A stretch of 64,000 bases of DNA from an uncultured virus (IMG/VR IMGVR_UViG_3300016486_001479) (Duplodnaviria; Heunggongvirae; Uroviricota; Caudoviricetes), in the IMG/VR virus record IMGVR_UViG_3300016486_001479. One strand, written 5' to 3'. Every line of letters starts with the position of its first letter. Position 1 is the first letter of the stretch. The translations under genes were made by a program, and so were the position numbers. The notes beneath the pieces are model-generated. The model saw only the letters and a program-made list of their open reading frames with translations. It searched no databases and was not told the DNA's origin. Positions 2,998 to 64,000 of this stretch are shown here, in pieces.

Positions 2998-3435
2998 ATG
3001 GAAATAGATGATGCAGAATTAAAGAGTGCATGCGAACATTTGGGGGCGGACTTTGAAATACTTCGAGGAAAGAAGTGTCCTTACTGCAAAGGCGAAACAA
3101 AATACGTGGATTCATCCCTTGTGTATGGTCGTAGTTATGGGATGATGTATTTATGCGAGCCCTGTGATGCTTATGTTGGGGTTCACCATAAGACCTCAAA
3201 GGAGAGCTTAGGCAGTGTTGCCAAAGGAGAGCTTCGCAACTGGAGGAAGCAAGCCCACGCGGCTTTCGACCCCATTGCTTACGAGAGGAGAAAGAACTGG
3301 AACAGAAGAGAAGCCTACAGTTGGCTTAGAAAGAAAATGGGAATCCCCAAAGCATTGTGTCACATAGGCATGTTTTCTGTAAATAGATGCAAGAAGGTAA
3401 TAGAAATTTGTAAAAAAACACCTTGGAATGAATAA
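2998..3435 (+). CDS. zinc-finger protein (DUF3268-like)
   Basis: CPYC...YLCEPCDAYVGVH...LR..R..AH..FD...CHIGMF pattern. Confidence 0.75.
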   Translation: MEIDDAELKSACEHLGADFEILRGKKCPYCKGETKYVDSSLVYGRSYGMMYLCEPCDAYVGVHHKTSKESLGSVAKGELRNWRKQAHAAFDPIAYERRKNWNRREAYSWLRKKMGIPKALCHIGMFSVNRCKKVIEICKKTPWNE

Positions 3436-14352: not shown

Positions 14353-14428
14353 AACTTAAGGTAAGAATGGTAAAGAGAGTTACTTCATTTCCACATTTAA
14401 CAATTTTTTCCAAAATATACCAAGAGTT
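14353..14428 (+). ncRNA. Y-RNA-like element 1 (GTTACTTC stem family, divergent)
   Basis: GGTA..TGG.AAAGAGAGTTACTTC...TTTTTTCCA..TACC stem upstream of Ro60. Confidence 0.5.
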
Positions 14429-14431
14429 TAC

Positions 14432-14710
14432 GACTTTCAGAGTGTTGAGAGGTGTGAACGTTTTTGACGTTTCCTAGGGGTTACTTCAACTATAAACAAA
14501 CAAGCAAACAGGCTTTTTTGGAATAGTCGAAAGACCGTTTCGAAAAGACCATAAACAGAAACCCAGACACCAAGGATAGACTTGGATTTTCAGCCATTAA
14601 TGAGCTGGTGACGGATTGGAACAGTACAATCACGATTACGGTAGACCGTATGACCGAAAGAGAAAGAACTTTCAACCTTATCACCCCCCTCTATTTTACC
14701 TCGAACAGTT
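14432..14710 (+). ncRNA. Y-RNA-like element 2 (long, ~280 nt)
   Basis: TTCAGAGTGTTGAGAGG...GGGGTTACTTC pairs with CACCCCCCTCTATTTTACCTCGAA; large internal domain. Confidence 0.6.
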
Positions 14711-14713
14711 ATT

Positions 14714-14793
14714 TGCCTTACGGTGTTAAGGAGATGAGTTACTTCAACTACAAATAGAAAAACCACTCTCTCCAGGATTACCCGACCAAGGCA
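14714..14793 (+). ncRNA. Y-RNA-like element 3
   Basis: TGCCTT-ACGGTGTTAAGGAGATGAGTTACTTC...CACTCTCTCCAGGATTACCCG-ACC-AAGGCA. Confidence 0.65.
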
Positions 14794-14805
14794 TTATATT
14801 TTTCG

Positions 14806-14843
14806 AAAAAGCACCCTCTGCAAAGATGTGGTGCTTTTTTTTT
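14806..14843 (+). terminator. intrinsic terminator between Y-like RNAs and Ro60
   Basis: AAAAAGCACC...GGTGC followed by T8. Confidence 0.65.
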
Positions 14844-14897: not shown

Positions 14898-16418
14898 ATG
14901 TCAAAATTTAACGAAAAATCAAAGGTAGAAATGACTACCAACAAAGCGGGAGGAGAGGCTTATAAGTCGACTCCAGAGTTAGAGCTTGTGACGATTCTGT
15001 TGAACTCGTTTGTGTCTGATGACTTCTATTCGAAGGCAGGAGACCAAATAAAGGAGTTGACATCCGTTCTTAGCAAAGTGGACCCAGAGTTCGCAGCAAA
15101 GGCGGCTGTCTATGCCCGTAACGAGTTTGGAATGCGTTCTATCACCCACGTACTTGCGGGTGAAATCGCTAAGCACGCCTCAGGTAAGGCCTGGGCTAAA
15201 GAGTTTTACGCAGCTATTGTACGTCGTCCAGACGACATGACTGAGATTATGTCCTACTACTTCGGTAGAGAGGGTAAGAAAGCATCTTTGCCAAACGCGC
15301 TAAAGAAAGGTTTCAAGAAAGCTTTCGGAAAGTTCGATGCATACCAGCTTGCCAAGTACAGAGGAGACAAGAATGAAGTATCGCTTGTTGACGTTGTAAA
15401 CTTGGTTCGTCCAAAAGGAACGGCTAGAAACGAGAAGGCACTTGCCGAGCTTGTTGCTGGAACCCTAAAGAGTGAAAACACTTTCGAGTCTAAGCTGTCC
15501 GCAGCTGGCCAGGGAGCGAAGACCTCTGAGGAGAAAGCCGCAAACAAAGCTGAGGCTTGGTCTGACTTGGTTATGTCAGGTAAGATTGGACAGTTTGCTC
15601 TTCTAAGAAACCTTAGAAACATCATCCAAGATGCTTCTGACGAGGTTCTTAACAAGGCATGCGAGCTGTTGACTACAGAGGCAAGAATTAAGAAGTCACT
15701 GATTCTTCCATTCAGATACATCACTGCACTCGACGAGATTACAGTGTTGACTGGAACAAAGTCTAAGAAAGTTCAAAGAGCGCTTAACACCGCCGTAGAC
15801 CTAGCTTGTTCTAACATTCCAAAGTTTGATGGAAACACTGCAGTCGTAATTGACCTGTCAGGTTCTATGGATTGCCCAATTGCTGGAGGTAAAACTTACA
15901 GGAATAAAGTGGCAGCTCTATTTGGAGCCATGATGGCCAAGGCTAGTGATGCTGATGTAATGTCGTTTGGAACACACGCAATGTACCTTCCAGTTAACGT
16001 GAATGACTCAGTAATGGGTATGGCAAACTGGATTGTTGATACAAACCAAGGCTACGGCAACGTTGGCAAGTACAGGGTTGGTCACGGAACGAACTTCCAA
16101 GACATCTTCGTTAAGATGAAGGCGAAATACGACCGTGTATTCATCTTCTCGGACATGCAAGCGTGGATGGAGTACAATACTCCAAAAACTCAGTTTGCAG
16201 CGTACAAGAAGAAGTACGGTGCTCAGGACTGTAAAGTTTACGAGTTCAACTTGGCTGCAAGCGGAAGCATGCAGTTCCCAGAGAAGAACGTATTCGCGCT
16301 AAGAGGATTCTCTGAAAAGATTTTTGATGTCATTGACAATCTAGAAGTCGACAAAAGAGCGCTTATCAACACTATCAACAATTATGTTGATTTTGCTGAG
16401 CTTGCAACTAAGGAATAA
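14898..16418 (+). CDS. rsr: Ro60/TROVE-domain RNA-binding protein with vWA domain
   Basis: TTNKAGGEAY, YARNEFGMRS, FDAYQLAKY, ALLRNLRNI, ILPFRY, VIDLSGSM (MIDAS), GTNF, IFSDMQ, GFSEKIF. Confidence 0.93.
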   Translation: MSKFNEKSKVEMTTNKAGGEAYKSTPELELVTILLNSFVSDDFYSKAGDQIKELTSVLSKVDPEFAAKAAVYARNEFGMRSITHVLAGEIAKHASGKAWAKEFYAAIVRRPDDMTEIMSYYFGREGKKASLPNALKKGFKKAFGKFDAYQLAKYRGDKNEVSLVDVVNLVRPKGTARNEKALAELVAGTLKSENTFESKLSAAGQGAKTSEEKAANKAEAWSDLVMSGKIGQFALLRNLRNIIQDASDEVLNKACELLTTEARIKKSLILPFRYITALDEITVLTGTKSKKVQRALNTAVDLACSNIPKFDGNTAVVIDLSGSMDCPIAGGKTYRNKVAALFGAMMAKASDADVMSFGTHAMYLPVNVNDSVMGMANWIVDTNQGYGNVGKYRVGHGTNFQDIFVKMKAKYDRVFIFSDMQAWMEYNTPKTQFAAYKKKYGAQDCKVYEFNLAASGSMQFPEKNVFALRGFSEKIFDVIDNLEVDKRALINTINNYVDFAELATKE

Positions 16419-20562: not shown

Positions 20563-20705
20563 CCTGGAGTAGCTCAGTTGGTTAGAGCACCACCCTGATA
20601 AATGAGGAAAAGGATTGAAACGCAACCTGCGTGGCCACAAGGGTTGTGAAGTAGAGAATTGGAATCGAACGGTGGGGGTCGGGGGTTCGAGCCCTTCCTC
20701 CAGGA
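20563..20705 (+). tRNA. tRNA-Ile(GAT) with 69-nt insertion at the 3' side of the anticodon loop
   Basis: CCTGGAG...CCACC-CTGATAA-[20602-20670]-GGTGG...TTCGAGC...CTCCAGG-A. Confidence 0.75.
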
Positions 20706-20711
20706 CAATTT

Positions 20712-20878
20712 CATGCGATAGCTTAGATATGTTAAAGCACCACACTGATAATGTGGAAGACGAACCGAAAGGACTCAGTTCGGGATGCAAACACAAAAAC
20801 TCACTTGCGTGGCCACAAGAGTGAGTTAGTAGTTGATGTTGAAGAAATGATGGGGGGCAGAACCCTCTCGCGGGACCA
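20712..20878 (+). tRNA. degenerate tRNA-Ile(GAT)-like with ~90-nt insertion before the T arm
   Basis: CCACA-CTGATAA-TGTGG anticodon arm; ends TCGCGGG-ACCA; T loop aberrant. Confidence 0.55.
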
Positions 20879-20996: not shown

Positions 20997-21122
20997 GGGC
21001 GGATTGCACCAAGATTTTTAAGGAAATGTTCGAACGAGTACTTAAAAGGATGGAAGGCGCAAAACTAGATGGCTTAGCGGCCATAAGAAAAGTTGTAGGT
21101 TCGATTCCTATTCCGTTCACCA
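20997..21122 (+). ncRNA. tRNA-like RNA: acceptor stem, T arm and CCA around a ~90-nt non-tRNA interior
   Basis: GGGCGGA...GTAGG-TTCGATT-CCTAT-TCCGTTC-ACCA. Confidence 0.6.
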
Positions 21123-23173: not shown

Positions 23174-23863
23174 ATGCGAAACCCCACAAAGAAGTTTGAA
23201 AACGATAATATATCATTTTATAGATACAGCTGGGGAAAACCAGTTGCTTTTCACTTAACTTACGAGTGCCACGGGTATTCTGATGATGAGAGACCCCAAA
23301 TCCATATAGCATTCCTATTCTGGAGCCTGTTTTGGAGTATGCCCTGGTCACACAAGAGAAAGGATTACGGCGACTCAGAACAGTATGGCTGTTATTGGTA
23401 TCAGGATGGTTGGCAGAGTCAGAGCTTTGTTATTCGTTACGGAAAGAAATCTAAATACATTAATATGCCCTGGAATCTCGACCACGTTCGCCACAGCATT
23501 AAATTGAAGGATGGAACATGGGTTCATTCAATAAAAGGCGACAAACAAGACTTTTATAAAGACGAATGGAAAGAGAAAATGTGGAGAACTAATATGCCGT
23601 ATGTTGATAAGCACACTCCAAATGGAGAACTGAACGTGGTTAATGCCGATATATCCATCTCGGAGAGAGAATGGAGAATGAGATGGTTCAAACGAACAAC
23701 TATGTTCAGCCAAGTGAGTCGTACAATTGACGTTGAATTCTCTTCAGAAGTAGGAAAGAGAAGAGGAAGCTGGAAAGGTGGAACCACTGGTTGTGGTGAA
23801 AGATTTGATAAACACGAAACATGGAAGGACGGATTTGAGAGACTAACACAGAGAGTTTTTTAA
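23174..23863 (+). CDS. Trp-rich conserved phage hypothetical protein
   Basis: 229-aa ORF ending in EVG...GSWKGGTTGC motif. Confidence 0.7.
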   Translation: MRNPTKKFENDNISFYRYSWGKPVAFHLTYECHGYSDDERPQIHIAFLFWSLFWSMPWSHKRKDYGDSEQYGCYWYQDGWQSQSFVIRYGKKSKYINMPWNLDHVRHSIKLKDGTWVHSIKGDKQDFYKDEWKEKMWRTNMPYVDKHTPNGELNVVNADISISEREWRMRWFKRTTMFSQVSRTIDVEFSSEVGKRRGSWKGGTTGCGERFDKHETWKDGFERLTQRVF

Positions 23864-32563: not shown

Positions 32564-34891
32564 ATGGATGAGTTATTAGCAAAAAGTACTGGCGAAACCC
32601 TGATTGAGCACAGTCGAAAGGTTGCTGAGGTTGCGGAATATATTGCCGACTCAGTTATAGTTACCTCAGATACAGAAAAAAAACATTTTATATCAGTTAT
32701 CCGCAAAGCGGCGCTTCTTCATGATATTGGAAAAGCCGAAACCGAGTTTCAAACTTTACTCCGAAACTCTTTAAATGGTAAATCCACTAAAACAAAGAAA
32801 AAAGACATTATTTTTTCGCACAATGAAGTGGGATGGGCATTTGTAAGAATGTACATCAGCTTTGACTCAGAGGAGCTAAGACAAGTTGCTGAAGCAGTAT
32901 ACTGGCATCACGGCATTCATAATGTAATGGGCAAGCACACAGATGCGTCTATTCTTGAGTGGGTTCGGAAGAAGAAAGATAATTCTATCGATAGAATGAT
33001 TGAATTCGTCGAAGAATTATTTCCTGGCCAAGTCCTTGATAGGCCAAGAATAGCTGAAACATCAAGCCCTCATTACTATATTAGAGATTTTAACGAGACG
33101 AGCGACCTCAACGTTGACAACACGATTATTCGCATGTGCGTGGTAAGAGCTGACCACTTAGTTAGTGAATTAGGAGATTTTACAGTTGATGAAATTAAAA
33201 AAACTATAAATGAACGACTGATTCAACAACACCGTTACGCTTTTACTAAATGCCCATATCCTGGACATGAAAAAAGATGGACACAACAAGTTGCTTTAGC
33301 ATCTAGGACGACCTCGTTTAAGACTGTTCAAATCAACGCCCCTGCTGGATACGGAAAAACACTTCTAGGTTTACTTTGGAGCACTGTCAACAATAAACGG
33401 CTTATTTGGGTGTGTCCAAGAAATGCTGTGGCACAATCAGTGTACCACAACATCTTAAGAGAGCTTAAAAATGCAGGAATTGAAACTTCAGTAGAATTAT
33501 ATTACGCTGGAAAACAACAGGCCTCAAATTCAGATTTAGGAATAAAGTTTTCAAGCGATATCATTGTAACCAACGTAGATAACTTTTTACGTCCGACAAA
33601 AGAGCATTGTAACGATATTGATTTATTAATGGTATCCGATGCAGATGTTGTATTTGATGAGTATCATGAGCTAGTGTCGGACGGGGCTTTACTGGCTGGT
33701 TTTATAAATCTAATGAAGGTAAGACATCAGATGACAAACGGACGCTCTTTACTGCTGTCCGCAACCCCACTTGATTTATCAGTTTATTGGGATTCATTTG
33801 ACAACTCAACAGCCCATTTGCCTGGAAAATTTGAACATGCTCCTGCTGTCCACAATAAATCATACAAACTCACTACAAAAGAGGGGCGTTCTAGAATATC
33901 TGAAAGTAAAAAAAGCCCTGTTCTTTTTATCTCTAATTCTATAGTTGAGTGTCAAAGAAATAAGCACAAACACAATGAAGATACTATTTTGTTTCATGGA
34001 AAATTTGAGGACGACGACAATCAAGCGCGATTAAGCGTTATTCTTCAAAACTATGGAAAGCAATCCGACAGAAATATTGAAAAAGAACACGTAATAGCGA
34101 GCCCAATAGCACAGGCATCTTTAGATGTTTCTTTTAGGCATTTGATTGAAAGTTGCCTGTCTCCAGAAGCTACTCTTCAAAGAGTAGGCCGTGTCGACAG
34201 GTGGGGAGATTATGATGACCAGTCTGAAATTCTAACATATCGAATCCCTTCAGATAATTCTGGACGAAGTGAGAATAGAGCCCGCGAAACAATGTACTCA
34301 CGAGAACTGTCTGACTTATGGTTTAATTTTCTAACACAAAGTCAAGGGGAAACAACTTTAGATAACCTATATTCTTTGTATAATAAACATTGTAAAGAAA
34401 ATGAAGCCTTAAGAAGAATCTGGTTAAACACAAAATATCGACAAAGCCGCATGGATTTACATGAGAAAATTTATCCTAATAGGTTAACGATTAAAAGTGA
34501 AAACTCGGAAGTCCATAAAATACAAGAAACTAGCTATAGAAGCAAAGGAAATGAAATCTTTTTTACTGCTAAAAAATGGGCAAAAAAAGAATGGACACAG
34601 CCTAAATCAACTCCTATTTATGATTCTATACCCGAAGACTTCCATGAAGACTCCAACGCACTAGCAAAAGTATTTAAGATAATTAAACATCTTAACGATG
34701 AGCCAGATTGCGCTTTTGATTACACTAGATTTTTAAAAGTTCCAAAGCATAGCACAAATCTTGAATTATTGCGTATAATGGCGAAATACAAATCAATGCC
34801 GTATCCGAGGATGGATATGGAATATCATGACATTTACGGATATATTAAAAAAACTTTACTGGAAGAGTTTGACCAGCCAATTTACGAGTAA
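32564..34891 (+). CDS. cas3: CRISPR-associated HD nuclease/helicase Cas3 (no Cas2 fusion)
   Basis: LIEHS, LLHDIGK, HN, WHHG, RADH; APAGYGKT, DEYH, SAT, QRVGRVDRWG; adjacent cas6 and array. Confidence 0.92.
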   Translation: MDELLAKSTGETLIEHSRKVAEVAEYIADSVIVTSDTEKKHFISVIRKAALLHDIGKAETEFQTLLRNSLNGKSTKTKKKDIIFSHNEVGWAFVRMYISFDSEELRQVAEAVYWHHGIHNVMGKHTDASILEWVRKKKDNSIDRMIEFVEELFPGQVLDRPRIAETSSPHYYIRDFNETSDLNVDNTIIRMCVVRADHLVSELGDFTVDEIKKTINERLIQQHRYAFTKCPYPGHEKRWTQQVALASRTTSFKTVQINAPAGYGKTLLGLLWSTVNNKRLIWVCPRNAVAQSVYHNILRELKNAGIETSVELYYAGKQQASNSDLGIKFSSDIIVTNVDNFLRPTKEHCNDIDLLMVSDADVVFDEYHELVSDGALLAGFINLMKVRHQMTNGRSLLLSATPLDLSVYWDSFDNSTAHLPGKFEHAPAVHNKSYKLTTKEGRSRISESKKSPVLFISNSIVECQRNKHKHNEDTILFHGKFEDDDNQARLSVILQNYGKQSDRNIEKEHVIASPIAQASLDVSFRHLIESCLSPEATLQRVGRVDRWGDYDDQSEILTYRIPSDNSGRSENRARETMYSRELSDLWFNFLTQSQGETTLDNLYSLYNKHCKENEALRRIWLNTKYRQSRMDLHEKIYPNRLTIKSENSEVHKIQETSYRSKGNEIFFTAKKWAKKEWTQPKSTPIYDSIPEDFHEDSNALAKVFKIIKHLNDEPDCAFDYTRFLKVPKHSTNLELLRIMAKYKSMPYPRMDMEYHDIYGYIKKTLLEEFDQPIYE

Positions 34892-35992: not shown

Positions 35993-36847
35993 AAAGATGC
36001 AGTTTTGTTTCGTAACCATAAAGACACGAAAGATAAATTGTTTCTTGGAAATAAAGACGCAGGTGAGATTCGAAAGGGGCTCCCTCAATTTGAGTCCTAC
36101 TTAACACATCATCAGATTTCAAATGTCTTGCACGTGCTTTTTAATGAAAGACCAGTCCCTTTTTTTGGGGCCTGTGTCTATCAGAAGCAGGATAGATTGA
36201 TTGAGAAGGCAAAAAACAGCTTCCTAAAGATTGAAGTGCCCACTTGGGTTACTAAAAAAGGGGATGTTCGAGAAATTAAAGAGATATGCCGCACAAGGAA
36301 AGCTTTTTGGAACTCAAACGCCAAAATAACAAACCTCACTTGGGATTTGATTGAAGCCTACCTAAAAGAGCATTATGGTGATTTCATCACAATGCTCATA
36401 GAGGCAACGGGCCACTCAAATATTAGAAAAGTTCCAGTAGAAGATGTGCCTGATATTTTTAAGCAATCTTTAAACTCAGCCTCTAAACAAGCTTTGCTCT
36501 CTCATTTTAGAGAACGTAAAGTTGGAAAAACGGGTGTCGTTAACTGGCTGAGAAATAAGACTCCTACTGATAAAAACGACCCTATGGAGATGGCTAAGGA
36601 CTCTATCGCAAAAGGACTTATGCTGGTTGTTCCCAATGGCATAGATAAAACGATTCGCTTGAGCGGAACCCTTATTGTGCCGCTTGATGAAGAAGACAAA
36701 GAAGTCCTTGAAAACTCAGCTGGTGTGGCAACTATATTGGATGGAGGCTTGGTTTGGATTGAAAGAGTGGTATCGGGAAACAGGCTAAGCATTGAGGGTT
36801 ATGATAGAGTAGGAGATATATCCACTAAACTTACAATAGAGTCATGA
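35993..36847 (+). CDS. cas5: Cas5-like subunit (Cas5fv-like); start in N gap
   Basis: Position between cas7 and cas6; ISNVLHVLF and C-terminal SGTLIV...AGVATILDGGLVWI resemble the Cas5fv RRM core. Confidence 0.55.
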   Translation, partial: KDAVLFRNHKDTKDKLFLGNKDAGEIRKGLPQFESYLTHHQISNVLHVLFNERPVPFFGACVYQKQDRLIEKAKNSFLKIEVPTWVTKKGDVREIKEICRTRKAFWNSNAKITNLTWDLIEAYLKEHYGDFITMLIEATGHSNIRKVPVEDVPDIFKQSLNSASKQALLSHFRERKVGKTGVVNWLRNKTPTDKNDPMEMAKDSIAKGLMLVVPNGIDKTIRLSGTLIVPLDEEDKEVLENSAGVATILDGGLVWIERVVSGNRLSIEGYDRVGDISTKLTIES

Positions 36848-37560
36848 GAATACAGTTAAAATTTAGCTCCGCAAAGGAGTTGGTTCCAAATAACCTTAAG
36901 CACGTTGTGAGTTACATTCATAAATGCTTAGGAAAAGATAATCTCTATCACAATCAACCTTCTAACTATGTTATCTCTAGGATGATTGGAGGAACGATTA
37001 CAGAAGGCGGAACATCCATTGAGTACGCTCATGGAGGCAGTTTGTTTATATCCTCTGGAGACGAGAGCTTTTTAAATAAACTTCTCGCAGGAGCAGGAGC
37101 AAATAAAGATTTTGGATTTGGAATGAAACTGACGGGCATTGAGTTCATCCAAGAAGACTTGTATGATGGTTTTACTGTTTTTAAAACCACTGAAACTGGC
37201 ATTTTGCTAAAGAAAAAAAATGGAGGCCGTTATGAATTTCACACCCTAAATGATGATGGGTTTGAAGAGGAGTTGTCTGAACAAACAAAAAGACGTTTGT
37301 CAAACATTGACAACACTTTAAAATTTGACGGCTTTAGAATTGAAGTTCAGAAATCAAACCACAATAAGGTTAGAGATATTTTGATGAGTTCTTCTGGAGC
37401 CCCAAGTAAAACCAGTGTGAACAAAGCAAATGTATGCAGCGTTGTTGTACATTGCAACAAAAAGATTGCTCAAGCTATTCACGACTATGGTTTGGGACAA
37501 TCTACAGGAATAGGGTTTGGAATGGTTATGGAGATTACAAACTCAAAACTCTACATCTGA
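36844..37560 (+). CDS. cas6: CRISPR endoribonuclease Cas6 (not Cas6f-like)
   Basis: C-terminal G-rich loop YGLGQSTGIGFG; N-terminal YIHKCLG...YH. Confidence 0.88.
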   Translation: MRIQLKFSSAKELVPNNLKHVVSYIHKCLGKDNLYHNQPSNYVISRMIGGTITEGGTSIEYAHGGSLFISSGDESFLNKLLAGAGANKDFGFGMKLTGIEFIQEDLYDGFTVFKTTETGILLKKKNGGRYEFHTLNDDGFEEELSEQTKRRLSNIDNTLKFDGFRIEVQKSNHNKVRDILMSSSGAPSKTSVNKANVCSVVVHCNKKIAQAIHDYGLGQSTGIGFGMVMEITNSKLYI

Positions 37561-40645: not shown

Positions 40646-40688
40646 CTTATTTGAAACAAAACCCAATTGAATGCGTATATTTGCTTAC

Positions 40689-41690
40689 ATGAGAAAACTA
40701 GCAACCATTCGGAGAATAGAATCACTACATCCTATTAAAAAAGCTGACCGTATCGAACTTGCAAAAGTTGGTGGTTGGAGGTCAGTGGTCAAAAAAGGAG
40801 AATTCAATGTTGGCGACATGGTAGTTTATTGTGAGATAGATTCTTTATTGCCTGTGAAAGAAGAATTTGAGTTTCTTCGAAAATCTTGTTTTAGAGAATT
40901 GCCATATGGAGTTTCGGGGTTCCGATTAAGAACAATGAAACTTCGAGGTCAAATATCACAAGGCCTCATACTTCCTTTGTCAGTTCTTTCTTCAGGAGAT
41001 TTTAAAATTGGAGAAGATGTAACTGAGCAGTTACAGATAATCAAGTACGACCCACCTATTCCAAAAGAAATGATGGAAAGTGCAATTGGAGTTTTTCCGT
41101 CGTTTATTAAAAAGACAGAAGAGGAAAGAATTCAAAACTTAGATTCGGAGATAGAGCTTTTAAAGGGGCGAACTTTTTTCGTAACTGAAAAACTTAATGG
41201 ACTCTCGATGACAGTTTTTCATAACGCAAACGAATTTGGCGTTTGTGGAAGAAACTATCAATATAAAAAACTTGAAAGCAATGCTTTGTGGTCTTCGGCG
41301 ATAGAAGAAGGGCTAGAAGAGAAATTAAAAGCTTACGGTAAAAATATTGCTATTCAAGGCGAGTTGGTTGGGCCTGGAATCAGCGATAATCCATATGAGC
41401 TTGTGACAAAAGAATACCGAGTTTATAACATATTCAACATTGATGAATACGCATACCTCTCGAAAAAAGATTGTCAAGAATTAGCCACTCAAATGAGCCT
41501 AAAGTTAGTTCCACTTGTCTCAGCGTCTATGGCATTGCCTGAATCTGTAGATGCCATCCTAGAAATGGCTGATGGACCAAGCCAGTTAAATCCAGAGACT
41601 CAGAAAGAAGGAGATGTTTGGGTAAGCGGCGATGGACAAGATAGAGTCTCTTTTAAAGTTATTTCGAATCATTTTTTATTGGAGGAATGA
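40689..41690 (+). CDS. ATP-dependent RNA ligase (DRB0094-like)
   Basis: RKLATIRRI..I..ADRIE, YCEIDS, LRGQISQGL, TEKLNG, IQGEL.G, EG.V, SFKVIS. Confidence 0.9.
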   Translation: MRKLATIRRIESLHPIKKADRIELAKVGGWRSVVKKGEFNVGDMVVYCEIDSLLPVKEEFEFLRKSCFRELPYGVSGFRLRTMKLRGQISQGLILPLSVLSSGDFKIGEDVTEQLQIIKYDPPIPKEMMESAIGVFPSFIKKTEEERIQNLDSEIELLKGRTFFVTEKLNGLSMTVFHNANEFGVCGRNYQYKKLESNALWSSAIEEGLEEKLKAYGKNIAIQGELVGPGISDNPYELVTKEYRVYNIFNIDEYAYLSKKDCQELATQMSLKLVPLVSASMALPESVDAILEMADGPSQLNPETQKEGDVWVSGDGQDRVSFKVISNHFLLEE

Positions 41691-60545: not shown

Positions 60546-60565
60546 NNNNNNNNNNNNNNNNNNNN

Positions 60566-60654: not shown

Positions 60655-60745
60655 GGAAGTGAGGTCGACTATCGGTTGTGTCGCACTAGACTGTAAATCT
60701 AGTCCCTTTGGGTAAACAATGGGGGTTCGAGCCCCTCCGCTTCCA
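60655..60745 (+). tRNA. tRNA-Tyr(GTA)
   Basis: CTAGA-CT GTA AA-TCTAG, long variable arm. Confidence 0.85.
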
Positions 60746-60823: not shown

Positions 60824-61297
60824 GTGAGTAGAAAAGGAAAGGTTGACCTACAGTCAGTAAGTGATTTTAAAGTCATAATAGAATCTAGCAAAAGCATAAG
60901 AGAGGTTTTAACTAAGCTTGGATATAAAAATCCAAGCGGCTCAATGCATTCAAAAGTGAGAGAAAGAGTTACACGAGATGGTTTATCTATCACTCACATG
61001 ATTGGAAGATATGATTCTGGAAACGGAAGAAGAATTCCACTAAGTGATATATTAGTCGAAAATTCAACTTACTCTAATATTGCTAGACTGAAAATTAGGT
61101 TAGTAAATGAAGGGTTTTTAGAGTATAAATGTGTCAGTTGTAGTAATGAAGGCGATTGGATGGGTAATCCAATAGTTTTGCAATTAGACCATAAGAACGG
61201 AGTTCGTGATGACCATAGGTTGGAAAATTTAAGATTTATGTGTCCTAATTGCCACAGCCAAACAGCAACATTTGGAGGTAAAAACTGTAGAAAATAG
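60824..61297 (+). CDS. HNH homing endonuclease
   Basis: CVSC...LQLDHKNG..DDHRLENLRFMCPNCHSQT; followed by a tRNA 3' remnant GTTCGAACCCTAC (61301). Confidence 0.9.
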   Translation: MSRKGKVDLQSVSDFKVIIESSKSIREVLTKLGYKNPSGSMHSKVRERVTRDGLSITHMIGRYDSGNGRRIPLSDILVENSTYSNIARLKIRLVNEGFLEYKCVSCSNEGDWMGNPIVLQLDHKNGVRDDHRLENLRFMCPNCHSQTATFGGKNCRK

Positions 61298-61335
61298 TCA
61301 GTTCGAACCCTACTATGCCCACACTACAACTTTAT

Positions 61336-61464
61336 GGGGAGTGTTTTATTACACTTACTCTTTCTAGCGTTACCTGCATAGCAGTGTTGAAGAACAGAGT
61401 TACTTCGGTTCAATTTTTTGCTAAACACAAGAATAGATAGGTTCGATTCCTATACTCCCCACCA
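61336..61464 (+). ncRNA. tRNA-scaffolded Y-RNA-like element 4
   Basis: GGGGAGT/ACTCCCC-ACCA, T arm ATAGG-TTCGATT-CCTAT, internal ACTCTTTCTAGCGTTACCTGC-ATA-GCAGTGTTGAAGAACAGAGTTACTTC. Confidence 0.75.
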
Positions 61465-61527
61465 TCTTGCTATGATGGATTGTGACCAAGAGGGGCCACC
61501 CGATGACAATCACAAACAGGGTTTGAC

Positions 61528-62304
61528 GTGCTCCGAAACGGAGATTTGTTTAATGAGATGCCGATACCAGAGCTAATGCGTATGGTTTCTTCTTTTTCAA
61601 TTCAAAACATGCTATCCAGAGACGCATTTAAAGCTAGAATGGACCGAGAGCAACCAATTGCTATCCACGAGCTTTTAGTCCCAATTCTTCAAGGCCATGA
61701 TAGCGTCCATTTGAGGACTGAGATTGAAATTGGAGGTTCAGACCAATTGTTCAACTTCACCATTGCCAGACGAATGCAAGAACTTGATGGCCAGAAGCCG
61801 CAAGTGAGTTTGATGGCTCCAATTATTCGAGGAACAGACGGAAGGAAGATGTTAAAATCATTCGACAACTGTATCTTCCTTGATGGAACCCCAGGAGGCA
61901 CTTTCGGGGCCTGTATGAGCATATCTGACGCTGTAATGGACGAAGAGTTCATTCCACTCCTAACAGACCTAAAAACCTTTCCTGAGAGCCCCGTATTGAG
62001 AAAGAAAGCTATGGCCAAAGATATTGTTCGCCAGATTCACGGCCAAGAGGCTGCAGAGCGGGCTCAATCGGGATTCGAGAACCAGGTTCAGAAGAAAGAA
62101 ATCCCAGCTGTTATTAAAAATATTGAAGCAAAAGACTTGATTCAAGCTGTAGTTGCAGTCAGAGATTGTAGCAACTCAGCAGCAAGAAGATTGATTTCAG
62201 AAGGAGGTGTTCAGGTGGAAGGAGGTGCGGTAACTGAAAACGGCCCAGTAGAGTCGGGTCAGGTTGTCAAAGTTGGCAAAAGAGAATTCGTTAAGATTTT
62301 ATAA
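61528..62304 (+). pseudogene. tyrS: N-terminally truncated tyrosyl-tRNA synthetase
   Basis: PILQGHDS, EIGGSDQLFN, GTDGRKMLKS, S4-like C-terminus; no HIGH motif, in-frame TGA at 61504. Confidence 0.75.
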
Positions 62305-62596
62305 GTATCAACCCCTCTGATTTATTGACCTAATAAGAGCTGTAGAAACACCATTTATTGATTGAATTTGACTCAGAGTTCTTTGGCTTTTAGATTGAAT
62401 ACCAGATATTGGAGCTATTTCTTGACTATCGGTATAATAAACTTTCAATGCACAACCACGACTTGCATTGCAATTGGTGTTCCCACACAGAGAGACTTCT
62501 ATGTCAATCCAAATCTGCCTGGTCACATCTGCCCAGATAGCAGACAGTCGTTGGGGCNNNNNNNNNNNNNNNNNNNNTCAAAACAAAACACATTCA

Positions 62597-62722
62597 ATGT
62601 TCAACTTTACAGACATAGCGATTTCAAACCAACCGATGCCGATGGCAGCGACTGGCTGTGCGCCCGATTATAGCGGGAGCAAGCAGAATGACCTGGTTAT
62701 GTCTAAACTGAACAACAGTTGA
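62597..62722 (+). CDS. putative attenuator leader peptide MFNFTDIAISNQPMPMAATGCAPDYSGSKQNDLVMSKLNNS
   Basis: A-rich start context; overlaps antiterminator strand GAATGACCTGG (62686-62696). Confidence 0.6.
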   Translation: MFNFTDIAISNQPMPMAATGCAPDYSGSKQNDLVMSKLNNS

Positions 62723-62745
62723 TGTAGAGACATAAACCATTAGGG

Positions 62746-62793
62746 AAAACCCCCAGGTCATTCAATCAAACGAATGACCTGGGGGTTTTTTTT
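62746..62793 (+). terminator. attenuator terminator before the Pro/Asp/Ala tRNA operon
   Basis: AAAACCCCCAGGTCATTC/GAATGACCTGGGGG-T8. Confidence 0.85.
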
Positions 62794-62839
62794 GTTTCTG
62801 GACTCAACGGAGCCAGAAGATTAATTGAAATATTAATAT

Positions 62840-62913
62840 CGGGAGGAAGTGCAGTCAGGTAGCACGGGGCATTTGGGATGCTCAGGTCGAGGGTTCAAAT
62901 CCCTCTCTCCCGA
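62840..62913 (+). tRNA. tRNA-Pro(TGG)
   Basis: GGGCA-TT TGG GA-TGCTC cloverleaf. Confidence 0.88.
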
Positions 62914-63066
62914 CACAAAGTGTTAGTTTACAAGAGTTTCTAGTAAATGTCCACACGAGTAGGAGTTTTTGAAAACAATAAGAGTTCTTTGACATATTGA
63001 TAATAAAGTTAATTAAAAAACCCAAGATATTACACCGATGTAATCGTCATAATATCTTGGGAAAAT

Positions 63067-63140
63067 GGTGGCGCATCATATTGGCGCATGTTGCCTCCCT
63101 GTCACGGAGGAGATTGAGGATTCGAATTCCTTCGTCACCG
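63067..63140 (+). tRNA. tRNA-Asp(GTC)
   Basis: CCTCC-CT GTC AC-GGAGG. Confidence 0.85.
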
Positions 63141-63172
63141 CTTTGGTGCATTAAAGTACCACAATTTATTAT

Positions 63173-63291
63173 GGGGAGGAATAATTAATACTTTTTCGCT
63201 TTTTACCTGGCAACAGTGTTGATAGAAAGAGTTACTTCGAAAATTAGTATCATAAACTATAATTGCAGATTAAGACCTGCCCTCCCCACCA
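63173..63291 (+). ncRNA. tRNA-scaffolded Y-RNA-like element 5
   Basis: GGGGAGG/CCTCCCC-ACCA, T-like arm GCAG...CTGC, internal TTACCTG-GCAA-CAGTGTTGATAGAAAGAGTTACTTC. Confidence 0.7.
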
Positions 63292-63301
63292 TATTTAAAA
63301 A

Positions 63302-63372
63302 TTTTCAGTGTTGAAAGAAGAGTTACTTCGTTATAGGAACATAAAATCACTCTTCTTAGAATTACCTGAAAA
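63302..63372 (+). ncRNA. Y-RNA-like element 6 (minimal hairpin)
   Basis: TTTTCAGTGTTGAAAGAAGAGTTACTTC...CACTCTTCTTAGAATTACCTGAAAA. Confidence 0.7.
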
Positions 63373-63375
63373 AAT

Positions 63376-63449
63376 GGTGGCGCATCATATTGGCGCATGT
63401 TGCCTCCCTGTCACGGAGGAGATTGAGGATTCGAATTCCTTCGCTACCG
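63376..63449 (+). tRNA. tRNA-Asp(GTC), near-duplicate of 63067
   Basis: Nearly identical sequence. Confidence 0.85.
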
Positions 63450-63496
63450 CCCTTGGTCATTTACGCTTATGACCTTAATAAACAAAAAAACGACAC

Positions 63497-63572
63497 GGTG
63501 TGGAGGTGTTGATGGTAACATTTGTCCCTGTCACGGATGAGATTGTGGGTTCGACTCCCATGCACACCGCCA
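63497..63572 (+). tRNA. tRNA-Asp(GTC)
   Basis: TGTCC-CT GTC AC-GGATG, GCCA end. Confidence 0.85.
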
Positions 63573-63696
63573 ATTCAATCTTAGGTGCCTTAGGTAGCCG
63601 AGTCGCTTCGTCAGCGAAAAAGGACTCACTGAGATGTAGGCGCATTGAGCGTCGCATTAAAGGCTTGGGGATGACGCCCTGAGATTGATTGTTTAT

Positions 63697-63771
63697 GGGG
63701 TTGAAGCATGTGCTGGCTAATGCATCTGTCTGGCAGACAGAAGACCGTGGGTTCAATTCCCATCTTCTCCA
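63697..63771 (+). tRNA. tRNA-Ala(GGC)
   Basis: TCTGT-CT GGC AG-ACAGA; G3-U70. Confidence 0.8.
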
Positions 63772-63864
63772 CAATAAAAGATTAAAGAAAACAGGATATG
63801 CGACGAGCGTCTGGTGGGTATTCCCCTCATCAGGTTAAGCCGTTGGGGAACATGTCCTGCTAAT

Positions 63865-63939
63865 GGGGATGTAGCTCAATTGGCTGAGCGGCTGCCTTGC
63901 ACGTAGCGTCGTATGTGGGTTCGAGTCCCATCATCTCCA
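63865..63939 (+). tRNA. tRNA-Ala(TGC)
   Basis: GCTGC-CT TGC AC-GTAGC; G3-U70. Confidence 0.9.
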
Positions 63940-64000
63940 CAAATTCCAAAACGGCTCGAATCCGTTGCAGAGAGAAGGCCTCTACTCTGCCCAGTTGTTC

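Follow-up and report, generated by a model that had tools for sequence, protein, structure and literature searches.

A Ro60-type Y-RNA module in a tRNA frame: putative YrlA-lineage RNAs encoded in tRNA gene order in phage DNA

In published descriptions, bacterial Y RNAs mimic tRNAs but have their acceptor end sealed, which is given as the reason why most of them cannot be processed or charged as tRNAs are. YrlA, known from Salmonella Typhimurium and others, is one such Ro60-linked small RNA. In Chen et al. (2014; PMC4201824), it is given as a 5' strand bearing GNCGAAN0-1G, a YUAY that opens the variable arm, a T arm, a closed acceptor-like stem-loop, a D arm and the 3' strand of the Ro stem, and Wang et al. 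(2018; 10.1101/312249) regard it as a tRNA whose sequence is circularly permuted and whose acceptor stem is closed. The YrlA of Mycobacterium smegmatis indicates that tRNA enzymes accept such RNAs, in that RNase P cuts it and a CCA end is acquired (PMC4201824). Simpler forms are YrlB of bacteria and Yrl1 and Yrl2 of the Thermus phage phiLo, short stem-bulge-stem RNAs beside the Ro60 gene which lack a full tRNA-like domain; the Ro60 of phiLo binds both the Y-like RNAs that the phage encodes and the PNPase of its host (PMC12135203). Here, we consider a 64,000-nucleotide stretch of an uncultured virus (IMG/VR record IMGVR_UViG_3300016486_001479; Caudoviricetes), all of which was analysed and which we call the window. 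Two elements in it, A and B, carry a Ro60-type Y-RNA module within the frame of a tRNA, and a Ro60 gene lies in the same DNA.

The features of the two elements, in window positions, are these.

61336..61464, plus strand: element A, a candidate tRNA-order Y RNA with acceptor stem, Ro-module hairpin, small arm, T arm and ACCA, and no D arm
61336..61342, plus strand: 5' strand of the acceptor stem of A, pairing with 61454-61460 (7/7 Watson-Crick), with ACCA next at 61461-61464
61357..61400, plus strand: predicted Ro60-binding-type hairpin of A, its lower stem formed by 61357-65 with 61391-61400
61372-76 with 61382-87, plus strand: upper 5-bp helix of A, with one bulged T
61386-92, plus strand: GTTGAAG motif of A, compared with the published GNCGAAN0-1G
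61400..61406, plus strand: TTACTTC of A, the YUAY signature after the Ro-module stem, read from the sequence
61415..61433, plus strand: small arm of A, 6 bp with a 7-nt loop, variable or anticodon-like, from folding and energetically weak
61437..61453, plus strand: T arm of A, 5 bp with the loop TTCGATT, from sequence and RNAalifold
63173..63291, plus strand: element B, a second candidate tRNA-order Y RNA, acceptor stem 63173-79 with 63281-87 (7 Watson-Crick pairs), ACCA at 63288-91
63190..63232, plus strand: Ro-module hairpin of B, from sequence and comparative structure
63232-38, plus strand: TTACTTC of B, read from the sequence
63245-59, plus strand: small arm of B with a 7-nt loop, from folding
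63265-80, plus strand: degenerate T-like arm of B, only 4 bp with an 8-nt loop

In both elements the hairpin is composed of a lower stem, an internal loop and an upper 5-bp helix with one bulged base (the bulged helix). For B, the structure derived by comparison is essentially the minimum free energy fold (-30.2 vs -30.3 kcal/mol; z = -3.9, with 0/200 shuffles as good). An earlier note on this DNA had described A and B as having perfect acceptor stems, a T arm and ACCA, with a long hairpin in place of normal D and anticodon arms. The 7-bp acceptor stems, the ACCA, the absence of a D arm, the long hairpin and the T arm of A all hold, but the T arm of B is degenerate, and both elements have, after TTACTTC and before the T arm, a further small hairpin (7-nt loop) that the note did not mention. 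A reading on the reverse strand, where the complement of TTACTTCG resembles NCGAAG, was ruled out, as the T loops, the ACCA and the flanking tRNAs are all on the plus strand.

Compared with ordinary tRNAs (RF00005), the acceptor stem, the CCA and, in A, the T arm are tRNA-like, whilst the D arm is absent and tRNA finders miss both elements: neither is called by ARAGORN, and Rfam gives no match to either one, whether gathering scores are applied or E is allowed up to 10. ARAGORN called no tmRNA (transfer-messenger RNA), and the Rfam tmRNA model gave no significant match on A or B and only 21.6 bits on a relative. The tRNA-like domain of tmRNA does share with A and B an acceptor stem, T arm and CCA, a replaced anticodon region and a reduced D region; A and B differ from it in lacking pseudoknots and a tag-peptide frame and in carrying G3-C70 instead of G3-U70. 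The G3-U70 pair is the alanine identity pair. A covariance model, R1, built from the relatives described below with A and B both in its seed, scores them at 73.8 and 79 bits, respectively, and gives real tRNAs in the window at most 45 bits.

Read round the circle, A and B hold every YrlA module in YrlA order except the D arm, and the circle is broken in the acceptor stem rather than in the Ro stem. Whereas YrlA ends in its Ro-binding stem and has a closed acceptor, A and B end in the acceptor stem and ACCA and have their Ro module closed into a hairpin. The permuted order with a closed acceptor, the elbow of T and D arms and a score at the Rfam gathering threshold of 69 bits are all absent from A and B, neither of which matches RF02553, the Rfam YrlA model. 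The Ro motif differs from GNCGAAN0-1G by one change each in A (GUUGAAG) and in a smaller RNA, C (GUUGAAAG), and by two changes each in B (GUUGAUAG) and in a further small RNA, D (GUUAAGG). In all four, UUAC, which fits YUAY, follows the Ro strand, and a TROVE gene is encoded in the same genome (14898-16418). A canonical-order phage RNA, L055:419-533, which starts with GTGTTGA...GAGTTACTTC, matches RF02553 end to end with 38.9 bits (E 5e-6), a score that lies below the gathering score of 69. The relation to YrlA that the earlier note had drawn appears to be borne out by this canonical-order relative with the same motif, together with the match of the module to the published signature.

The open end of A and B has its nearest counterpart in M. 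smegmatis YrlA after processing, which likewise has an open 7-bp acceptor stem and a CCA tail on a Ro-binding RNA. There, however, RNase P cleaves a canonical YrlA into two pieces and CA is added after transcription (PMC4201824), whereas A and B would each be one continuous RNA encoded in that order, with CCA in the gene. Circularly permuted tRNA genes in some algae and one archaeon (Wang et al. 2018; 10.1101/312249) also demonstrate that a tRNA-shaped RNA can naturally be encoded in either order, but those genes are described as maturing to ordinary tRNAs, whereas in this one genome the RNAs of either order appear to be final products. Judged from sequence, A and B are not YrlA as defined, given their topology, lack of a D arm and Rfam score, but its un-permuted relative. 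We did not find an un-permuted YrlA form by title or abstract in the YrlA literature, a search that two Wolin-laboratory reviews lay outside; within that scope, the tRNA-order layout appears not to have been described previously for Y RNAs.

If the layout is meaningful it should recur, and relatives were found in viral contigs with two patterns. The first, GTGTTGA-N(1-14)-GAGTTACTTC, gave 88 loci, of which about 75 were judged by reading to be chance matches, mostly in coding-like sequence; a dozen were tRNA-order elements with a full D arm, in phage contigs of 67-476 kb. The second, GTTACTTC followed within 15-45 nt by a T-loop core, gave at least 125 loci. A classifier was applied to 175 distinct sites from both scans and the window, among the matches listed, and placed the closure of the acceptor downstream (canonical) in 42, upstream (tRNA order) in 36, on both sides in 14 and on neither in 83. 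Reading the 50 rows flagged as tRNA order or both, we kept 28 as convincing and dropped 22, judged to be chance or canonical YrlA (L014, L055, L079, L107, L119, L126, L130, L140, L141, L142, L144, L146, L167, L168, L174, L176, L183, L185, L191, L192, L203 and L206). At least 27 further tRNA-order elements in viral contigs came from the scans and classifier, with 4 more from the covariance-model search. Both a T and a D arm are present in 17 of the 27 relatives in the alignment (A1), and members without a D arm recur in several phage groups, alongside D-arm-bearing ones. The same pattern in prokaryote genomes, one per species, gave 131 sites. Of these, 78 were canonical and 7 were marked as having tRNA order, 4 of the 7 seeming genuine; as so few real tRNA-order sites occur there, we consider the form to be found mainly, though not only, in phage DNA.

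When 29 sequences were folded together with RNAalifold, the acceptor stem, T arm and bulged helix were recovered, with compensatory changes in 16 of 17 pairs. Across a 26-pair structure, pairing is found in 93.6% of cells against 71.8% for shuffles, and double changes in 152 cells against 44; none of 500 shuffles reached the observed value of either, and sliding the partners by 1-3 columns left at most 50% paired. Since acceptor and T-arm pairing had been selection criteria for the set, the bulged helix offers the only unbiased test of covariation, and there 93% of cells pair in the 29-sequence count and 97.6% in 34 distinct sequences, four of them new, aligned to R1, with 5/5 pairs covarying in each. 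Pairing in the lower stem is only 80-83%, with one covarying pair, because its pyrimidine and purine runs slip in register, which the MAFFT columns could not fix. TTACTTC (UUACUUC) is invariant in 29/29 aligned sequences, the search patterns that collected them having included it. At least about 30 relatives thus keep the acceptor stem, T arm and bulged helix through compensatory changes, and the comparative evidence speaks for that note's proposal that a Ro60-type Y-RNA module may sit in a tRNA frame.

The elements are also linked to Ro60 in the genomes that carry them. In the window, the gene is placed as follows.

14898..16418, plus strand: Ro60 gene (Pfam TROVE 1.1e-25, vWA_Ro60 5.2e-8)

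Its open frame starts at 14826, and a terminator-like hairpin with a T run spans 14806-14843 (10-bp stem, 14-nt loop), between element D and the Ro60 coding start; read by eye, this hairpin is absent from the terminator scan listing since its loop exceeds 8 nt. Given the hairpin, 14898 is the likelier start. Among the matches listed, a TROVE profile finds the gene in 15 of 22 records bearing a tRNA-order element, and a protein search adds a 16th (G020) in which the Ro60 C-terminus is cut by the contig end. Co-occurrence of the motif with TROVE genes, which the earlier note had taken as a point on which its idea could fail, is therefore found in 16/22 records and in 9/10 of those at least 90% complete, the background rate being 99 matches to the window Ro60 among 50,697 phage records. 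The element lies on the same strand and at most about 1.3 kb downstream of the TROVE match in nine records (G009, G012, G015, G016, G019, G020, G021, G022 and G023; the distance in G019 is counted across the record ends) and 2.8-3.8 kb from Ro60 in G014 and G018. In five huge phages (G002-G005 and G010) it is more than 100 kb away, within tRNA arrays. The closest Ro60 among named phages, at 50% identity, is in a 634,780-bp uncultured phage, and blastn matched the huge-phage-type element to no named phage.

One crAss-type element matches, at 97% identity, Bacteroides phage crAss001 and 19 PhiCrAssBcn isolates, and no annotated feature lies beneath the match in any of 24 phage records. In crAss001, two tRNA-order elements, located by R1, occupy a 905-nt unannotated gap after gp96, an 'RNA-binding protein' that is a Ro60 homologue.

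L369 (NC_049977.1) 3001-3144 and 3256-3394: crAss001 elements, R1 matches

The one with a D arm scores 112 bits and the one without it 93 bits. A literature search found no mention of crAss001 and Ro60 together. In the phages csAssE-Sib and cr111_1, R1 gave nothing convincing beyond tRNAs and one 44.6-bit match, at 2107-2279 of csAssE-Sib (L244; OR575929.1), just upstream of a Ro60-related gene. This stretch contains GGTTACTTC, overlaps an annotated tRNA-Tyr and may be a further Y/tRNA hybrid variant.

The same two strands also occur in the window in the opposite order, the Ro module there being made by the two ends of the RNA.

63306..63368, plus strand: element C, a small classical-order Y RNA, the Ro module made by its two ends and with no tRNA-like part
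14721..14784, plus strand: element D, another small Y RNA of classical order, some 110 nt upstream of where Ro60 probably starts
14440..14702, plus strand: element E (possible), a classical-order Ro module around about 200 nt, paired by eye only
14373..14386, plus strand: orphan GAGAGTTACTTC half-site, for which no partner strand was found

C, which has a 25-nt apical loop beginning with TTACTTC, sits between B and a tRNA-like gene at 63376. Like A and B, C and D are missed by ARAGORN. Between C and D there are compensatory changes in the upper helix (CAG/CTG against CGG/CCG) and in the lower stem. The opposite-order copies that the earlier note had placed near 63302-63372 and beside the Ro60 gene are thus C and D, and both circular permutations are present in one genome; that note's six copies become five two-stranded modules, of which E is only plausible, and one half-site. 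The pattern GTGTTGA-N(1-12)-GTTACTTC has three matches in the window and none in any of 100 shuffles, and GAGTTACTTC with at most one mismatch has nine, against 4.5 expected. C and D, and perhaps E, would be simple classical-order partner RNAs like bacterial YrlB, and YrlB with Yrl1 and Yrl2 of phiLo are the systems closest to them, although the phiLo motif is CGAA (PMC12135203), where C has UGAA and D UAAG. A small classical-order Y RNA lies upstream of Ro60, in an arrangement like that of D, in 5/5 huge-phage relatives (G002-G005 and G010). At their Ro60 loci (L093, L094, L095, L096 and L102) this RNA measures about 80 nt, sits roughly 400 nt ahead of the gene and carries the bulged helix and GTTACTTC, as D does. 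In the window, the terminator-like hairpin at 14806-14843 suggests that the Y RNAs upstream of Ro60 may form a transcription unit separate from it.

The immediate surroundings of A, B and C need careful interpretation given that the window is a scaffold with six runs of N, two of them near the elements (60546-60565 and 62558-62577). The nearest record, G001 (141 kb, 64% complete), is 99.9% identical to the window, but the order of pieces differs, 62580-64000 coming before 60566 onward. Repeats of tRNA genes probably confuse the assembly, and with the different order in G001 this makes the distance from A to B uncertain. B and C are also present in G001, which has the short form lacking a 1,201-bp segment (60877-62077) that carries A. 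This segment is a polymorphic indel: contigs joining 60876 to 62078 occur in 4/4 DNA runs and contigs with the segment in 3/4, both forms being found within the same samples. A search for sequencing runs with this sequence listed 24 DNA runs and no RNA run. It holds most of an HNH endonuclease open reading frame (60824-61297), element A and most of an apparently truncated tyrosyl-tRNA synthetase gene, and being an indel in the phage population it places A on a variable, dispensable cassette. In the class I (W/Y) synthetase profile of 292 positions, the synthetase-like frame (61528-62304) covers just 90-288, the N-terminal part being missing; a tRNA-Tyr gene lies at 60657-60744. B and C sit within a same-strand tRNA array, between two 94.6%-identical tRNA-Asp(GTC)-like genes with odd D arms (63067-63140 and 63376-63449; Rfam 35.8 and 35.5 bits, not called by ARAGORN), and being so flanked the B-C unit lies inside a tandem repeat of about 309 bp.

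Taking these findings together, we consider A and B to be, probably, YrlA-lineage Y RNAs with genes laid out in the order of a tRNA; they would be released by tRNA enzymes, dock on Ro60 through the hairpin and use the tRNA-like end for stability or to engage a partner. In such an RNA, the T arm would stack on the 7-bp acceptor stem ending in ACCA, and the closed Ro-module hairpin would stand at the place of the anticodon stem. A and B would be transcribed together with the neighbouring tRNA genes, and RNase P and the tRNA 3'-end enzymes would excise them, leaving CCA at the end of the mature RNA. Acceptor/T-arm helices are substrates of RNase P and the CCA enzyme, and it is from this, together with the processing of M. 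smegmatis YrlA and the binding of Y-like RNAs by phiLo Ro60, that we infer the release. The bulged helix of the hairpin would then dock on the phage's own Ro60 (14898-16418). The acceptor/T-arm end might shield the RNA from exonucleases, or might offer a tRNA-like handle to a tRNA-binding partner; in the latter case Ro60 would be tethered to that partner as it is in other Y ribonucleoproteins. That they stand midway between tRNA and Y RNA, as the earlier note suggested, is also a fair hypothesis.

Several observations weigh against this interpretation. The comparison with the Rfam YrlA model that the earlier note had proposed came out negative, as neither YrlA nor Y_RNA matched any of the four RNAs (A-D) even with E allowed to reach 10. 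The C of the Ro motif is replaced by U in A, B and C, and there are further changes in B and D. Because A and B have no D arm, and the T loop of B is degenerate, an elbow like that of YrlA cannot form in them, and the elbow is the most conserved part of YrlA. The comparative fold of A, at -25.7 kcal/mol, is 7.6 kcal/mol worse than a different, non-tRNA minimum free energy fold, and the isolated hairpins of most members are no more stable than shuffles (the z-scores are mostly insignificant). The selection of relatives on acceptor and T-arm pairing favours those helices, and the element-bearing records belong to a few related lineages, so the counts of co-occurrence with Ro60 are not independent. 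A and B themselves are 45-47 kb from the Ro60 gene of the window, much of the phage population is without the 1.2-kb segment bearing A, and one record that is 94% complete (G006) has a tRNA-order element and no Ro60 detectable by TROVE profile or protein search.

A different explanation would make A and B free-standing tRNA mimics whose hairpin binds another protein or none, with Ro60 using only C and D, and with the likeness of the hairpin to the Ro module reflecting shared ancestry instead of present function. The remoteness of A and B, the element without Ro60 in G006 and the five huge phages, which have a small classical Y RNA right upstream of Ro60 and the tRNA-order element more than 100 kb away, would all fit this. 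The bulged helix and its flanking motifs are, however, as strictly kept in the tRNA-order RNAs as in the classical ones, and in nine records it is the tRNA-order RNA itself that lies immediately downstream of Ro60, so we regard a Ro60-independent role as unlikely. Could the elements instead be working tRNAs, with an extra arm or excisable insert between the D and anticodon arms and the small 7-nt-loop hairpin serving as anticodon arm? The D-arm-bearing relatives do have the small arm followed by a 5-nt variable loop of AGGTC type and then the T arm, as a tRNA would; most of the loops have, by eye, the anticodon-like U at loop position 2 and A at 6; and the Rfam tRNA model gives 44 bits on two of them (L005 and L028), taking the middle as an insertion. 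Yet the small arm folds with its 7-nt loop at minimum energy in only 10/32 members, close relatives carry different loop triplets, a D arm is missing from A and B, the elements in 15 loci all go uncalled by ARAGORN, and canonical YrlA has the same small arm without an open acceptor end. We also know of no bacterial or phage mechanism for removing such a hairpin, and working tRNAs seem to us very unlikely.

A further alternative is decay, A and B being functionless remnants of tRNA or Y-RNA genes, left by duplication and rearrangement, both frequent events in the tRNA arrays of phages. The loss of the D arm and, in B, the degenerate T loop have that appearance, A lies on a dispensable indel next to an HNH endonuclease gene, and B and C lie between the two 94.6%-identical tRNA-like repeats. 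Remnants would not be expected to show perfect 7-bp acceptor stems in both A and B, compensatory changes over at least about 30 relatives, or D-arm-less members in several phage groups paired with D-arm-bearing ones, and we consider this explanation highly improbable. A bolder extension of the tRNA-order YrlA reading would have the hybrids work at both ends, with tRNA-handling proteins and with Ro60, and would take their layout as ancestral to YrlA. After maturation by RNase P and the CCA enzyme, the RNAs would be recognised, and perhaps aminoacylated, by tRNA-handling proteins whilst the hairpin holds Ro60, and the permuted bacterial YrlA would have arisen from the ancestral tRNA order by tandem duplication. 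As a joint proposition this is rather unlikely. If it were true, phage Ro60 would, in infected cells, be brought to the machinery for tRNA repair, turnover or translation, and the published idea of a 'dimeric tRNA' origin would gain a concrete form.

For Y RNAs in general, an open, CCA-ended subfamily widens the range of conceivable partners to RNase P, the CCA-adding enzyme, synthetases, EF-Tu and RNA ligases, and Y RNAs in tRNA order are a second data point on the origin of YrlA from tRNA. The Rfam YrlA model and tRNA finders leave such genes unannotated, even in crAss001, a phage that can be cultured and serves as a model for the phage family most abundant in the human gut.

The source stretch resembles part of a very large phage genome, with 14 tRNA genes called by ARAGORN, all on the plus strand. 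Genes for an Acb3-type inhibitor of CBASS (cyclic oligonucleotide-based antiphage signalling system; 23174-23863), a Cas3-like protein (32564-34891), a Cas6-like protein (36844-37560) and an RNA ligase (40671-41690), the last with a PHA02142 OB fold and an RNA_ligase domain and placed amid tRNA genes, are together a counter-defence and RNA-repair setting around the Ro60 system. At 21032-21119 there is a tRNA-like stretch that lacks a D arm; its acceptor stem is imperfect, ACCA is encoded, and its T arm is almost the same as that of A. It has no Ro module and scores 20.6 bits with R1. Nearby, a tRNA at 20563-20705 with the anticodon loop CTGATAA has an insert of about 66 nt directly after that loop (Rfam tRNA 49.9 bits over 143 nt), and a second gene at about 20715-20870 begins similarly and has a longer insert; both look like intron-containing phage tRNAs.

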